DNA from: Gemmatimonadaceae bacterium
GTDB lineage: Bacteria > Gemmatimonadota > Gemmatimonadetes > Gemmatimonadales > Gemmatimonadaceae
Direction: 5' to 3'
Assembly (NCBI GenBank): GCA_051859245.1
Contig: JBHYGA010000004.1
Location: 96,001-160,000 of the forward strand
DNA length: 64,000 nucleotides
Positions 46,029-55,070 of this stretch are shown piece after piece. The notes under the pieces are model-generated. The model ran no database searches, was not told the DNA's origin, and saw only the letters and a program-made list of their open reading frames with translations. Position 1 is the stretch's first letter. Each line of letters opens with the position of its first letter. The translations under genes were made by a program, and so were the position numbers.

Positions 46029-48713
46029 ATGACCGGCGCCGCTGTGATCCGTGAGCGGCGCGAGCTCGACGCACTGCTGCAGCTGGCGCGCGAAATGGCC
46101 AGCGGCACGCCGAGCACACGACGTGTGCTCGAACAGCTCGCCGAAACGGCGCAGGAGTTCACGCAGTCGGAAGGTGCCTGCGTGCTCGAGCTGCGCGACG
46201 ATGTGTATCATGTGGTCGGACCGTCCGGCATCGCATTGCCGTACGACGGACAGTCATTTCAGATCATGCCTGCGCCGTCAATCTTTCGTGAAGTGCTGGC
46301 CACGGGTACCGTGGTGCTGACAAACGATGGCCAGAACGATCCGCGTGTTGATCCGCGCTTTCGAAATGCGCTGCGTATTCGTCATTTGGCCGCAGCGCCG
46401 ATCGTGCTTGAGGGTCGCATTGATGGTCTGCTGGTGCTGCTCAACTCGGCGCAACCGGGTGGCTACAGCGCGAGCGACGCGTCGCTGTTGCAAAGACTGG
46501 CGGAGTTCAGTGCGGTCGCGCTGCGCGACGCGCATCTGGTGCAGCGCGCCGAGCGTGCCGCAGCCGATGCGCAGGCGCGCGCGCATGAAGCGGCGATCGC
46601 CTCGCGCCGACACGCCGTGCTGGCACGTACGGCCGACGCCCTCGCCAATGCCGGCACACCCGATGCCGTATACCAGCGCATCAGCAATATCATGAGCGAG
46701 TTGCTCGGCGCGGGTGGCGTGGCGATCTACGACGTCAATGTTGATACGCGCACGGTAAAGTTGTCCTTCCAGACGGGCATCGGGACGATGGATCCCGAAA
46801 CCGTGGTGCGTCTGTTCTGGAAAACCCGGCTCGCCGACGTCGTACTGGCCGGCGTGCCGGCGTTCGTGGACGACATGCTGAAGGGCACCGAGGTTGAGCT
46901 CGCCGTTACCGAACCCATGCGGCGCGCTGGGATTGGAGCGTTGGCGTTGTTGCCACTGCGCGTGGATGGTCGCGTGATTGGCTCGATCGGCATTCGCTTT
47001 CTTGGCACGCGTGAGTTTGACGCGGCCGAGCGTGCGTTTCTCGAATCGTTCTCGTCGCAGGTGGCGGTGGCGCTGCGCAATGCGCAGCACGTCAGCGACC
47101 TGCAGGATCGCGCTGAACGGCTCGACAATCTCGCGCGCGAGCGTGAAATCGAACAGCAGCGTGCAGAGGCAGCGGCCGATGTCGCGCGCACCGCGCTTGC
47201 GCATGGTGGTTTGCTCGCCGGCGTGCAATCGCTGCTTGGAATTCTTGAGCGCATTGTGCCGTCGTCAGGCAAAGCGATTGGTGTGGCGCGTGCGCGAGAC
47301 GGTCGTCTCGAATACGTTGGCGCGCACGGATCGCTCGCGTCATTGCTCGGACATCGTCCAGCTGGCCTGCGCGGGGTGCTTGGCATCACACCGGACGGAC
47401 TCCCGATTGAGCTGGAGAGTCTGCGAAGTGAAGCGCCAGCGCCGTTGCGCGACGCTGTGCCGGATGAGCGCGCACTCGTGCTGCCGCTCGTGGCCCGTGA
47501 CCGCGCCCTCGGCGTGTTGCTCGTGAGCGCCACGCCGGACGCCATGTGGAGCCACACGCAACGCGAAACGCTGGAGCGCGTCTCCGCATCACTCGCGCTG
47601 GCTATTGACGCCCTGCTGCTTGATGAAGAAGAACGTCAGGCGCGCGAACGCGAGGTCATGCTCGCCACAGCGCTGACGACGCTCGATCACCCCGTGTTTA
47701 TTGTTGAAGGCAACATCGTGCGTTATGCCAATCCCGCCGCGGCACGCGAGTACGGCTGGAGCACGGGAGAGTTGATTGGTCGACCGTTCAGCGACTTTGT
47801 CGCCTCTGATCAACCGTACAGCGGCGACGATTTACTCGTGTCAGCAGAACACGAAATCGAACCGCGCGATCATAGGCATCGCCGTCGCGATGGCAGTGAG
47901 TTTGCCGCCGTGCTCACGGTGAGCCGCTTGCGCTCTGAAGCCGGTCAGACAACGGGCGCTGTTGTTTCCGTGCGTGATGTGACGCGCGATCGTGCGATTG
48001 CGGAGCAGCTGCGCCATTCTGAAAAAATGATTGCGCTCGGCGAACTCGTGGCCGGCGTTGCCCACGAAATCAACAATCCGCTCACCGGCATTTCAGCCTT
48101 TGCGGAGTTGTTGTTGGAAGACGCGCTCTCTGATGAACATCGCGAATCCGTGCAGCTGATCAAGCGCGAAAGCGATCGCGCCACGGCGGTGATTCGCGAT
48201 CTGCTCATTTTTGCGCGCAAAGCCGACGCGGCAACCGGTCCGGTTGATATCAACGAGCTGGTCGAGCAAACACTGCGACTGCGCGCGTACACAACGCGTG
48301 CGCTCGGTGTGACGGTCGATCTCGACCTCGATCCGTCGCGGCCCCATGTGGAGGGCGACGCGCAACGGCTGCAGCAGGTGTTGCTCAATCTCGTGGTCAA
48401 CTCGGAACAGGCCATGCACGGACGGGAGACTCGAATACTCTCCCTGCACACACGCGTCGATGGGGATCAGGTCCGCGTCATCGTGGGCGACACGGGCTCC
48501 GGCATGTCGGCCAATGTGAAGCGTCGATTGTTCGAACCGTTTTTCACCACCAAGCCGCTTGGCGTGGGCACCGGCCTGGGGCTGAGTGTGAGTTACGGCA
48601 TTGCGCAGACGCACCGTGGCACACTCGAGGTGCAATCTGAGGAGAACGTTGGTACATCGATTACTCTGACTCTGCCGGTCCTGCCGCCACCCGATTTTGA
48701 TCCCCAGACTTGA
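46029..48713 (+). CDS. Cytoplasmic multi-GAF/PAS histidine kinase
   Basis: About three GAF-like segments; PAS YANPAA...RRRDGSEF; H-box AGVAHEINNPL, N-box QVLLNLVVNS, DTGSGM, FEPFFTTK, GTGLGL. Confidence 0.93.
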   Translation: MTGAAVIRERRELDALLQLAREMASGTPSTRRVLEQLAETAQEFTQSEGACVLELRDDVYHVVGPSGIALPYDGQSFQIMPAPSIFREVLATGTVVLTNDGQNDPRVDPRFRNALRIRHLAAAPIVLEGRIDGLLVLLNSAQPGGYSASDASLLQRLAEFSAVALRDAHLVQRAERAAADAQARAHEAAIASRRHAVLARTADALANAGTPDAVYQRISNIMSELLGAGGVAIYDVNVDTRTVKLSFQTGIGTMDPETVVRLFWKTRLADVVLAGVPAFVDDMLKGTEVELAVTEPMRRAGIGALALLPLRVDGRVIGSIGIRFLGTREFDAAERAFLESFSSQVAVALRNAQHVSDLQDRAERLDNLAREREIEQQRAEAAADVARTALAHGGLLAGVQSLLGILERIVPSSGKAIGVARARDGRLEYVGAHGSLASLLGHRPAGLRGVLGITPDGLPIELESLRSEAPAPLRDAVPDERALVLPLVARDRALGVLLVSATPDAMWSHTQRETLERVSASLALAIDALLLDEEERQAREREVMLATALTTLDHPVFIVEGNIVRYANPAAAREYGWSTGELIGRPFSDFVASDQPYSGDDLLVSAEHEIEPRDHRHRRRDGSEFAAVLTVSRLRSEAGQTTGAVVSVRDVTRDRAIAEQLRHSEKMIALGELVAGVAHEINNPLTGISAFAELLLEDALSDEHRESVQLIKRESDRATAVIRDLLIFARKADAATGPVDINELVEQTLRLRAYTTRALGVTVDLDLDPSRPHVEGDAQRLQQVLLNLVVNSEQAMHGRETRILSLHTRVDGDQVRVIVGDTGSGMSANVKRRLFEPFFTTKPLGVGTGLGLSVSYGIAQTHRGTLEVQSEENVGTSITLTLPVLPPPDFDPQT

Positions 48714-48794
48714 CTCGGCGTTTCCGTTCAAGTACTAGGGGGTGCATGGTTTTGGTGCAGAGTTGTTTTCGACGTTACCCGAGAGGAGGCGGTC

Positions 48795-49820
48795 ATGCCG
48801 CGCAGTGACGAAGTATTCGGAGAGGATCCGTTTCTCCAGAGCGATCAGCCAGTCGCTCGCCTTGATGGCTATGGCGGCTCCTACGATGACGACGAGGAGG
48901 AGGACAGTTACCGGATTCCCGATGAGGAAGACGGCAACGGCCTCTGGGATAGCGCGGACGACTCGGATGACGATGAGGACGAGGATTACGGCGTCACAGA
49001 AACCGAGGAAGAGGAGGACGACGTCGAGGAAGAGGAAGACATCTTTGGTCGTCCTCCGGCTCGCCGTGGCCGTCCGCCTGGACGCACCAAGACCGCCGTT
49101 CCGTTGATCGTGGAAGACGAGGTCGAAGCCGATGACGATCTCGGCATCGACGATACCGACGACCTTGATGACGACGGCGCGGACGACCTCGAAGACGACG
49201 AAGACGGTGTGGATGACGAAGATCTCGGCGACGAGGATCTGGGCGACGAGGACGACGGTCCGCCGATGAAGGCCCCGAAGGCGGCCAAGCCGCCCAAGGC
49301 GCCGCCTGCGCCCAAGCCGGCGCCCAAGGCGGCGCCGGAGCCGAAGCCTGCCCCGGAGCCGAAGCCGGCGCCGGCACCAAAGCCAGCGCCCGCACCCAAG
49401 CCGGCTCCGGCCGCGAAAGCGCCAGCGCCGGTGAAGGCCGAAGCCAAGGCCCCGGCCAAGGCGGAACCGAAATCAGCCGCCAAAACTCCGGCCAAGGCCC
49501 CCGCCAAAGCACCCGCTAAGGCACCTGCCAAGGCCGCAGCGAAGGCTCCGGCCAAGGCTCCGGCCAAGGCTCCGGCCAAAGCGCCAGCCAAGACACCGGC
49601 GAAGGCTCCGGCCAAACCGGCGGCCAAGCCGGCTGCCAAGGCACCTGCGAAAAAGGCGGCGCCGGCCAAGAAGGCCGCGCCGATGAAGAAGGCCCCGGCC
49701 AAGAAGGCACCGGTCAAAGCAGCAGCAGTGAAAAAAGCGGCCCCCAAAAAGGCCGCCGCGAAGAAGGCGCCGGCGAAGAAGCCCGCCGCAAAGAAGGCCG
49801 CCAAGCCAAAGCGTCGCTGA
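48795..49820 (+). CDS. Disordered protein: Asp/Glu-rich N-half with AT-hook, histone-H1/AlgP-like Lys-Ala-Pro C-half
   Basis: Strong GAGGAGG SD; D/E runs, PARRGRPPG, then PKPA/KAPA/PAKK repeats ending KPKRR. Confidence 0.85.
49268..49810 (+). repeat. Degenerate 12/15/18-nt coding repeats ([15 protein letters not shown])
   Basis: For example AAGGCTCCGGCC three times in tandem near 49542-49577. Confidence 0.85.
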
Positions 49821-49893
49821 GACGCGGCCTGGTCAGCACTCTCAGCCGCCCGATCACGGAGCAACCCGGGGTCGGGCGGCGTAGTATTCCGAT

Positions 49894-51435
49894 ATGACGC
49901 CAAGCGTGATACCTCCTGTTGAGCGGCTGGACGAAGCGCCGCTCTCGCGACGCGTCCTCGACGCGCTCCCGCTCACCGTGTACTCCGTCGACCTCGAAGG
50001 TCGCATCACGGCGGCCAATCGTTCGTGGTCGCGTTTTGCGTCGGACAACGGCGCCGAAGAACTGGCGGCCGAAGCAGAAATGATCGGCTGCTCGATTTTT
50101 GCCGCGATGGCCGACGACGCGTCGCGCGAGCAGATCGAACGGGCGATGACCCTGCTTCGGGAAGAGCGGGTGCCCATGGTGCGCTGGGAGTTTCCCTGCT
50201 CGTCGCCCGAAGAAGAGCGCATTTTCCTGATGCACATTTCGGCGCTGTCCGGGCCGGACGGTGTGGACGGATTCGTTTTTTCGACCGTCGACATCACCGC
50301 CAGCCATCGCTCGCGCGAAGCCCTCATCGAAACGGGTATCGCGCTGTCGCACGCGATCGATGTTGGCCGCGTGTACGAAGAAGTGTCGCGTCAGGTGCGT
50401 CGCGCCGTCCCGAGCACCGGCGTGGTCATTGCGGTCGCTGATGACGAGACGGCGGCGATTCGCATCGTGCATCGATGGGGGTTTGGTTCGGCCGGGAACG
50501 GCGCCGCGCTCGAGACGCGACTGATGCCGTCGTGGCTGGAGGCGCTGGCCGGCGGCAGGGTGGTGCTACGCGAGGTAGAAGGGCGACTCGAACTGACCGT
50601 GCCCCTCACGAGCGCCGAGGGAGTGCTTGGCGCCATCACGCTCGTCACCGAGGCCCTCGACTCCGCGCAGCAGCTCGACGAAGCAGAACGCGTCATTTCG
50701 GTGATCGCGGCGCAGACCGCGGTGGCGATTGAGCGCGCCTGGCTGGTGCGGCGCGTGGAGCATAAGCGCCGACTCGAGGCCATTGGTGAGGTGGCGGCCG
50801 GTGTGGCCCACGAGCTGCGAAATCCACTGTTTGGTATCTCCTCGGCCGCTCAGTTGCTGCGCTTTCGGGCCCGCGAAGATCCGGTGGTGGAAAAAAACGT
50901 GCTTCGGATTCTGCGCGAAGTTGATCGCCTCAACAAAATGGTGACGTCGCTCCTGGACTTTGGCCGGCCAGCCACGGCCCATCTGCAGCCGGGTGATCCT
51001 GAGGCGCTGTGGGACGAGGTGCTGGAGGCAGAGCACGATCGGTTGTCCAACTCGGGGCTCAAGCTTCGTCGCACGCGCCCTGAACAGCCCGTTCGGTGCC
51101 TCATTGATGCGGAACAACTCCGCCAGGTCTATCTCAACATCCTGGTCAACGCCGTCGACGCCGCTCCGTCCGGAAGCGATCTGATCCTGACCTCTGGTTT
51201 GCTGCCGAACGGTAGCTGGCGTTGTCGCCTTACCAACGGTGGCCCCGCCATCCCACCCGAGGTTCTGCCACACGTCTTCGAGTTTTTCTACAGCACCAAG
51301 CCTGGCGGCACCGGTATCGGCCTGGCGCTCTGCCAGCGCATTCTCGACGAGCATGGCGGCTCCATCAACATCGACTCCGCACCCGAGATGGGAACCACAG
51401 TCACGCTGGCGCTTCCGCCCACGGCGGCCTCGTGA
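49894..51435 (+). CDS. PAS/GAF histidine kinase
   Basis: PAS VDLEGRITAANRSW; AGVAHELRNPL, QVYLNILVNA, FEFFYSTKPGGTGIGL; TAGTAT-N6-ATG suggests a leaderless start. Confidence 0.93.
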   Translation: MTPSVIPPVERLDEAPLSRRVLDALPLTVYSVDLEGRITAANRSWSRFASDNGAEELAAEAEMIGCSIFAAMADDASREQIERAMTLLREERVPMVRWEFPCSSPEEERIFLMHISALSGPDGVDGFVFSTVDITASHRSREALIETGIALSHAIDVGRVYEEVSRQVRRAVPSTGVVIAVADDETAAIRIVHRWGFGSAGNGAALETRLMPSWLEALAGGRVVLREVEGRLELTVPLTSAEGVLGAITLVTEALDSAQQLDEAERVISVIAAQTAVAIERAWLVRRVEHKRRLEAIGEVAAGVAHELRNPLFGISSAAQLLRFRAREDPVVEKNVLRILREVDRLNKMVTSLLDFGRPATAHLQPGDPEALWDEVLEAEHDRLSNSGLKLRRTRPEQPVRCLIDAEQLRQVYLNILVNAVDAAPSGSDLILTSGLLPNGSWRCRLTNGGPAIPPEVLPHVFEFFYSTKPGGTGIGLALCQRILDEHGGSINIDSAPEMGTTVTLALPPTAAS

Positions 51436-54524: not shown

Positions 54525-55070
54525 ATGGCTGACTCTCCGGTCTCGCTACTCCGTGCCCACTCGCGTCACGCTCCGTGGAACGCGCGCGGACTCGCCTCAC
54601 ACGCCTCAGCGCTCGTTGACGCCGCCGGAATGCGACCGACGAATGCGTCGGCACGCGCCATGCCGAGTGCACGCGCCGTGCGCTTTTACGTGGCGAACGG
54701 TTTGCTTGATCGACCGGAAGGCGCGGGCACGGCCGCGACCTACGGCTATCGGCATCTGTTGCAGTTACTTTCCATCAAGATTCGTCAGCGCGAAGGACAA
54801 ACGCTCGACGCCATCAAGCAGGAGATGCGCGAGGTCACGGGCGACGCACTGGAGCGTCGTGTCGCCACGTCGCTCACTCCCGCGCTCATGCTGAACGGTA
54901 ACGGCACCACCACCACGAGCGATGCGCCGGCCACGTGGCGACGCTTGCCGATCAGCGATGGTGTTGAGATTCATGTGCGTGATGATTCTCCGGCGGCGCG
55001 CGAAAGTGTGCTGCTCGCAATGCGTGAAGCGGTGCGTGGCGCTGTGGGCCGCGCACAAATCCCCGACTAA
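54525..55070 (+). CDS. MerR-like HTH protein
   Basis: PSARAVRFYVANGLLDRPEG...YGYRHLLQLLSIK...GQTLDAIK; C-terminal WRRLPISDGVEIHV. Confidence 0.85.
   Translation: MADSPVSLLRAHSRHAPWNARGLASHASALVDAAGMRPTNASARAMPSARAVRFYVANGLLDRPEGAGTAATYGYRHLLQLLSIKIRQREGQTLDAIKQEMREVTGDALERRVATSLTPALMLNGNGTTTTSDAPATWRRLPISDGVEIHVRDDSPAARESVLLAMREAVRGAVGRAQIPD

Follow-up and report, generated by a model that had tools for sequence, protein, structure and literature searches.

What does a gene encode whose first half is acidic and whose second half is a lysine-rich repeat, and is it a gene at all? We address this question for positions 48795-49820 of a 64,000-nucleotide stretch of Gemmatimonadaceae DNA (the window; contig JBHYGA010000004.1, positions 96,001 to 160,000 of the forward strand, assembly GCA_051859245.1). 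The open reading frame (ORF) found there, here called the acid-basic gene, is a real, single-copy gene of an unnamed family, and this family is a near-universal marker of the Gemmatimonadaceae. We propose that its product is a stand-alone nucleoid-associated DNA binder, similar in kind to histone H1 and HMGA, in which the acidic half damps the basic half in cis; we consider this about evenly balanced between right and wrong, and every biochemical step in it is one that we infer. The parts of the gene are:

48784..48789, + strand: Shine-Dalgarno sequence AGGAGG, read from the sequence; GGAG or GAGG stands at 100/102 family loci, a count that is not independent because member starts were picked partly by their Shine-Dalgarno score.
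48795..49820, + strand: acid-basic gene, 341 amino acids, a predicted disordered acid-hook-acid-basic polyampholyte (ORF, coding score, AlphaFold2, charge and family profiles).
48795..49049, + strand: family-defining acidic-aromatic domain, residues 1-85 (family alignments).
49050..49091, + strand: single AT-hook-type motif, residues 86-99, invariant in 12/12 copies from the genus of this genome, with synonymously varied codons.
49113..49256, + strand: second acidic block, residues 107-154, found only in this genus and a few others.
49257..49817, + strand: histone-H1-like tail, residues 155-341, with PAPK/APAK/KKAP repeats and a KRR end (composition).

An earlier note on this DNA had described a 341-residue ORF with a D/E-rich first half, a single RRGRPP, a remainder of K, A and P and a strong Shine-Dalgarno sequence, and all of this is confirmed. 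The frame has a coding score of +126, and the other four of the five overlapping ORFs score negative (-37 to -93). The hook separates two acidic parts, the family-wide domain, with the consensus MPRGDE..F.DRDD..GYGGG.SYDDDDE.GGW......LWDS.ED....DLFG over residues 1-85 (alignments A3 and A4), and the lineage-specific second block; RRGRPP itself is residues 90-95 (49062-49079). Residues 1-154 contain 71 D/E and 9 K/R (net -62), while residues 155-341 are 92% K/A/P (172/187) and contain 52 K/R (net +48), giving the whole protein a net charge of -14. The DNA of the tail is built of tandem arrays of 12-36 nt. Charge segregation, expressed as sequence charge decoration (SCD), is -53.4 against 0.85 +/- 1.14 for shuffled sequences; this is the most extreme value among the 3363 proteins obtained from the genome by crude gene calling, where the runner-up has -14.7. 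The pattern [RK]RGRP is present in 4 of 3376 proteins called in the same way.

The earlier note saw no obvious folded domain, and we arrive at the same result. AlphaFold2 gave the N-terminal 105 residues a predicted template modelling score of 0.15 and one 4-residue helix only, from a 51-row alignment, and the whole protein is predicted to be disordered, the tail being judged by its composition. No Pfam, NCBIfam or PDB family was assigned to the protein, and the weak matches were compositional; the H1-like profiles HC2 (E 1.6) and NF038053 (E 0.06) matched one member each, far below cut-off, and a Pfam scan did not find the HU/IHF (PF00216) or CarD_TRCF (PF02559) domains. The Pfam AT-hook profile had no match at E<=10 in a 31-residue piece and 11 members, in a search whose filters discard weak short matches. 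For one homologue, the ESM Atlas gave no usable feature match, with template modelling scores below 0.4 to its chimeric tail.

Relatives of the N-terminal 106 residues were found in 17 of 40 related genomes. Profile A1 matched 89 of 95 Gemmatimonadaceae genomes, once in each, and none of the 305 genomes searched from eleven further families in the phylum; in two of the six Gemmatimonadaceae genomes that it missed, the usual slot holds a divergent copy. The broader profile A4 matched 113 of 120 Gemmatimonadaceae genomes, 112 of them with a single match, and none of the 139 genomes searched from other families of the class. The earlier note had let its interpretation stand or fall with conserved orthologs, and these genomes supply them. 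Among titled records with homologs, 31 of 32 are labeled Gemmatimonas, Gemmatimonadaceae, Gemmatimonadales or Gemmatimonadota. The remaining record, a 3-kb contig titled Thermoleophilia (JAOPYQ010000017.1, L127), is probably a mis-binned Gemmatimonadaceae fragment.

To describe the anatomy of the family we counted features over 102 members from 33 genera. Two members with frame breaks (L088 and L108) and three cut by contig ends were excluded from the charge statistics, and one with an uncertain start (L057) was additionally excluded from the tree and alignments; an unpublished genome (G021) supplies one row (L016) to the counts and alignments, and no claim depends solely on it. The constant parts are an acidic domain of 80-90 residues with fixed aromatic motifs and the basic tail. 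The motif [YF][DE][DE] occurs in all 102 members, [LI]W[DE] in 101, G[YF] in 97 and a DLFG-type motif in 77. The plain polyacid envisaged earlier thus gives way to a conserved aromatic motif set (GY, YD, GW, LWD, DLFG) set in acidic sequence. Of the Ser/Thr residues within the acidic runs that were suggested as possible tuning (phosphorylation) sites, the serines after LWD (88/102) and before YD (81/102) recur, and the threonines of TETE are unconserved even within the genus. At the other end, every complete member (97/97) has at least two basic residues in its last three positions; the K/A/P share of the tail ranges from 19 to 92%, some genera having tails rich in K/R/G/S instead. All 97 complete members have an SCD between -23 and -88, so the charge-patterning check proposed in the earlier note shows the acid/basic block design to be kept throughout.

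The AT-hook behaves differently from these constant parts. Residues 87-99 have the GRP core with basic flanks and proline by which AT-hooks are recognized (PMC11354804), and in the genus of this genome the 15-residue hook block has no amino-acid change in 12 of 12 copies, with synonymous variation at all 15 codon positions; the hook therefore appears to be under selection there. Across the family its state is RGRP in 35/102 members (8/33 genera), RRGPGRP in 16, RRGR[KR] in 12 and no hook-like motif in 39, with a GRP core in 51/102. Within the N-terminal 140 residues no member has more than one RGRP, and 67/102 have none. Where the distance could be measured, the hook sits 4-10 residues past DLFG in 43 of 48 cases. 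Its state changes at least six times on a weakly resolved 96-row tree, and the basic tail is always retained. With 39 members lacking the motif and 12 having RRGR[KR] only, the AT-hook is dispensable in the family.

The gene also appears to have a promoter of its own, and the kinase gene downstream of it another:

48710..48738, + strand: putative dedicated promoter TTGACT-N17-TACTAG, with a near-consensus -35 and a -10 without the usual last T, overlapping the stop codon of the upstream kinase gene.
49882..49896, + strand: probable separate leaderless promoter, TAGTAT six bases upstream of the start codon (ATG) of the following kinase gene, by inference.

The pattern TTGAC-N16-18-TA occurs within 350 nt upstream of 98/102 family loci (31/33 genera), compared with 0/95 control windows farther upstream; a generic promoter scan does not call the motif at 48710-48738. 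The -10 mostly lacks its final T (TACTAG, TATTCA, TATTGG), in a genome without CdnL/CarD and with three short sigma-70 proteins. From the sequence, the downstream kinase gene probably has a leaderless transcript of its own; TAnnnT-N5-7-ATG lies within 200 nt downstream at 40/102 loci, a count made without a shuffle control. At 49847-49896 a GC hairpin is followed by TAGTAT, an arrangement that recurs in loci of the genus.

Expression was estimated for Gemmatimonas phototrophica as counts per million per kilobase (cpm/kb), calculated from published log2 cpm in supplement rows of PMC11406998 and PMC9862903. Its same-slot gene, GEMMAAP_RS20755 (358 aa, annotated 'hypothetical'), is assigned to the family through synteny and size only, within the order glnA, zinc-ribbon, GAF kinase, regulator, GEMMAAP_RS20755, PAS kinase, sigma-54 regulator. 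It reaches about 550 cpm/kb, compared with about 510 for rpoB, 1340 for rplB and 1130 for IHF-beta (365 in a second data set); the upstream regulator has 320 and the downstream kinase 160, about a third of the level of the syntenic gene. The absolute log2 fold change of GEMMAAP_RS20755 stays below 0.5 across light, O2 and Ca/Mg, and its expression looks housekeeping-like.

Consideration of the canonical nucleoid proteins of these bacteria gives further insight into what the gene may do. The genome studied has one HU/IHF-family gene, which is IHF-beta-like, and a single PF00216 match is found in 32/40 Gemmatimonadaceae genomes, compared with at least two in 83/97 genomes of sister family f2 and in 63/63 from other families. 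The missing paralogue is an HU-type gene that lies near tdk/gcvH in relatives and is absent at the corresponding locus here (G000:C5:59858-66715). Eight genomes of the family have two matches; the six inspected comprise three HU genes of the tdk/gcvH type, one duplicate fragment and two unrelated copies. In the matched sample of 120 genomes, 17 retain a recognizable, often lysine-tailed HU, a number that is a lower bound because the search at E<=1e-22 misses most f2 copies (4/17), for which reason the f2 figures come from PF00216 counts. Four of these 17 HU-keepers lack the acid-basic gene, including all three well-assembled genomes of genus g183, whose slot contains neither such an ORF nor the promoter motif. 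An RpoB tree of 30 genomes, built in quick mode, places one gain of the gene at the root of the family and one loss in g183, which is nested among HU-keepers; HU changes six times on this tree. The pattern, which fits redundancy rather than strict replacement, is based on very few events: the gene was gained once and lost once. The HU-type paralogue has been lost patchily in the Gemmatimonadaceae, and several retained copies have gained lysine-rich tails (L165, L166, L172, L173).

Taken together, these observations are consistent with the nucleoid-associated role that we propose. The lysine-rich tail would bind DNA electrostatically, coating and compacting it, and the optional AT-hook would bias binding to AT-rich tracts in a GC-rich genome. 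The acidic half may fold back on the tail, compete in cis and so loosen or tune DNA binding; its fixed aromatic motifs likely offer a surface on which a basic partner docks, or act as stickers for self-association, and it probably docks a partner. General DNA packing might in this way be supplied where canonical HU was repeatedly lost. The composition of the tail supports this, as it matches the H1-like tails of AlgP and PhaF, whose KPAA peptides bind DNA (PMC9239181). The natural presence or absence of the hook, with the tail kept, parallels the DNA-binding C-terminus of CarD, which is replaceable by HMGA, H1 or an H1 tail (PMC8156234, PMC4374960). Occurrence in 113/120 genomes, a conserved promoter motif and steady expression of the syntenic gene make up a housekeeping profile, and the HU pattern fits a nucleoid role. 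Damping in cis has a precedent in HMGB1, where D/E tracts auto-inhibit and speed target search (PMC10250230).

Several observations weigh against a nucleoid role. The charge of this copy (-14) and of the family (-25 to +37) is unlike that of AlgP (+55), and the hook is absent or reduced in 51/102 members. Conservation is strongest in the acidic-aromatic domain, which is more suggestive of a protein partner than of DNA. The totals of D/E and K/R rise together among members (rho 0.57, n=97; for genus means, 0.44, n=33), in keeping with damping in cis; this correlation comes down to two independent pairs on supported branches (p 0.5), with no significant within-genus test, and charge matching as co-evolution is thus not established. 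Thirteen of the 17 HU-retaining genomes also keep the acid-basic gene, neither gene was seen in three fragmented genomes, and a single PF00216 match stands without an acid-basic gene in 14/97 f2 genomes. The genome also holds other H1-like candidates (a 121-residue K/R protein and a K/A/P-SWIB protein), and a small G. phototrophica gene annotated 'histone', a probable counterpart of one such protein, is about seven times more expressed per kb than the syntenic gene (about 3660 cpm/kb). Of the nucleoid-protein interpretation in the earlier note, the orthologs, the block design, the housekeeping-like expression and the HU pattern speak for it; the hook, the plain polyacid and the flanking kinases do not.

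Because its conserved residues are aromatic anchors within an acidic chain, the protein could instead be a transcription co-factor, its acidic-aromatic domain binding RNA polymerase or another basic protein in the manner of CarD, the delta subunit or an acidic activator, and its tail serving only as a DNA anchor. The architecture equals that of the CarD C-terminus, the syntenic mRNA is about as abundant as that of rpoB, and the sigma-70 proteins of the genome are short. However, the genome has no CarD/CdnL partner domain, its sole match lying in a 1142-residue, Mfd-sized frame, and short sigma-70 frames also occur in the checked f2 and f3 genomes, which lack the acid-basic gene. We regard a co-factor role as unlikely. 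Two variants were dropped: a replacement for sigma region 1.1, in view of the short sigma-70 frames in f2 and f3, and a detached CarD tail, in view of the missing CdnL.

A quite unlikely alternative, which is compatible with the nucleoid role rather than exclusive of it, is that the tail binds RNA or polyphosphate and not the chromosome, with the acidic half and its aromatic/GYGG stickers keeping the protein soluble and driving self-coacervation. The charge pattern would suit such a polyanion-handling condensate protein, since it is an extreme diblock and yet near neutral (82/97 members within +/-20), as would the restriction of aromatic residues to the N-terminal part (median 6, compared with 0 in the remainder). 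AlgP, with a similar tail, localizes to polyphosphate granules (PMC9239181), and AT-hooks can bind RNA (PMC11354804). Against this, no polyphosphate, ribosomal or RNA-metabolism gene is among the 22 commonest neighbors, and the HU pattern is left unexplained.

The neighboring genes bear on a further possibility, that the protein is the dedicated partner of an adjacent regulator, either as a DNA-mimic anti-repressor of a MerR-like helix-turn-helix protein or as an output of the kinases. Two kinase genes flank it here, as the earlier note had observed, one of GAF/PAS and the other of PAS type, and further downstream in the window lies:

54525..55070, + strand: MerR-like helix-turn-helix gene, context only (Pfam MerR_1, E 4e-7).

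The MerR-like gene is the most constant neighbor, being in the downstream flank of 60/97 loci from 26 genera and within 300 nt in 42 of them, and either it or a PAS kinase follows in 91/97 loci; in addition, the acidic CarS is an anti-repressor of the MerR-type CarA (PMC8156234). The kinases are incidental neighbors, the upstream one adjoining the gene in 3/12 loci of the genus and the downstream one being present in 35/97 loci. An upstream response regulator of apparent HD-GYP type, so labeled from a reading of its sequence, is present at 41/102 loci. In two genomes of sister family f2 the MerR-like and HD-GYP-type genes flank a slot that is apparently empty, with no acidic or lysine-rich ORF. 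Together with the separate promoter motif and the roughly threefold higher expression than the downstream kinase, this makes a dedicated regulator partner improbable.

The notion of a low-complexity artefact, shadow ORF or neutral repeat expansion, for which unstable repeats, disagreement among annotators and absence from a 15-billion-protein collection might be cited, is hardly credible and is refuted by conservation: purifying selection, a conserved start, Shine-Dalgarno sequence and promoter motif, occurrence in 113/120 genomes and transcripts from the syntenic gene.

The disagreement is visible in Table S2 of PMC11237797. For this slot it lists the hypothetical GAU_0198, a truncated call (GEMMAAP_01415) and, as HKW67_14495/14500, an opposite-strand call together with a 124-residue 'histone', each with 0 orthologs. 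The 15-billion collection contains none of ten intact proteins looked for in it, perhaps as a result of start choice or low-complexity filtering. A search of 1.84 billion proteins gave 78 clusters; among nine printed search matches (six from that search), seven lack the basic tail through frameshift or chimerism, one is intact and one (P0079) is unrelated. Word-indexed homolog searches returned one and seven proteins, none named beyond 'hypothetical'. The family has probably remained without a name because of the miscalled slot and its absence from protein collections, and the literature searched, which did not cover subscription journals, contains no description of such a protein. In one member (L088:1506-3881) a one-base frame change in the repeat tail, due to assembly error or slippage, fuses the gene in frame with the downstream PAS kinase (792 aa).

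In its boldest form, which we think unlikely, the proposal would be that the Gemmatimonadaceae invented a fold-free chromatin protein, an analogue of H1/HMGA whose single chain includes an acidic chaperone or DNA mimic of its own, making canonical HU dispensable in most of this abundant bacterial family, and that it was overlooked since gene callers and ortholog clustering mangle it. If this were true, a disordered acid-basic protein would do part of the chromosome packing in a whole bacterial family, in place of HU. A cause in nucleoid structure has been proposed for the unexplained chromosome layout of the Gemmatimonadota (PMC11237797); that layout is phylum-wide, whereas the acid-basic gene is restricted to one family. 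The roughly 100 natural variants, with or without a hook, with a single or double acid block and with a K/A/P or K/R/G/S tail, form a series for acidic-tract tuning of basic disordered DNA binders, which has so far been studied mostly in eukaryotic proteins. Cultured, non-pathogenic strains exist, and the gene offers a near-universal marker of the family, one that is overlooked in current annotation.

Other chromatin-like candidates are encoded in the same genome. The 121-residue protein has KKAT/RKT repeats and no Pfam family (L260:1501-1863; G000:C8:90752-91117), and the SWIB/MDM2 protein has a K/A/P tail (L262:1501-1968; G000:C4:1021216-1021686). K/A/P tails are also found on proteins of 699 (C8:79002-81101) and 269 residues (C7:154098-154907) and, N-terminally, on a topoisomerase-I-like protein, so labeled from its sequence (G000:C1:827524-830010). 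A free polyacidic ORF of uncertain start, without a Pfam family and with 85% D/E over 60 residues (L261:1501-2028; G000:C1:1182354-1182884), is a possible trans-acting counterpart for basic proteins. In the sister family, L270 (G190) and L275 (G068) contain a non-syntenic protein of 110-130 residues with a Trp/Gly N-terminus, a Pro-rich linker, a K/A tail and a basic end; it has no acidic block and is an analogue or very distant relative of the acid-basic protein.

Among known systems, the acid-basic protein resembles the CarD C-terminus, HMGA and H1-like proteins but belongs to none of them, having no or one hook, N-terminal acid, no RID or HU domain and a near-neutral charge. The C-terminus of Myxococcus xanthus CarD likewise consists of a disordered acidic segment followed by RGRP hooks (PMC8156234, PMC4374960); the acid-basic protein differs in lacking the RNA polymerase-binding CarD_TRCF domain, either fused to it or on a separate CdnL, in having no more than one hook instead of four, in its long K/A/P tail and in being a stand-alone core gene. 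HMGA1/2 are also predicted to be fully disordered and combine AT-hooks with an acidic region, but they have three hooks (PMC11354804) and a C-terminal acidic tail (PMC4482583), in contrast to at most one hook, an N-terminal acidic part of 85-155 residues and an H1-like tail here; no sequence homology to HMGA was detected. With HU/IHF the protein has in common the proposed role of general DNA packing alone, without the HU fold or sequence similarity. AlgP, PhaF, chlamydial Hc2, Burkholderia NF038053 and the tail of mycobacterial HupB share a K/A/P repeat tail of about 100-200 residues; AlgP and PhaF have a strong net positive charge and a helical N-domain, whereas here the charge of the tail is roughly offset by an acidic domain. 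In the acidic tail of HMGB1, and in prothymosin-alpha with H1, a D/E tract is likewise able to neutralize a basic DNA-binding region; in the acid-basic protein, by contrast, both halves, predicted to be disordered, lie in one bacterial chain with conserved aromatic motifs.
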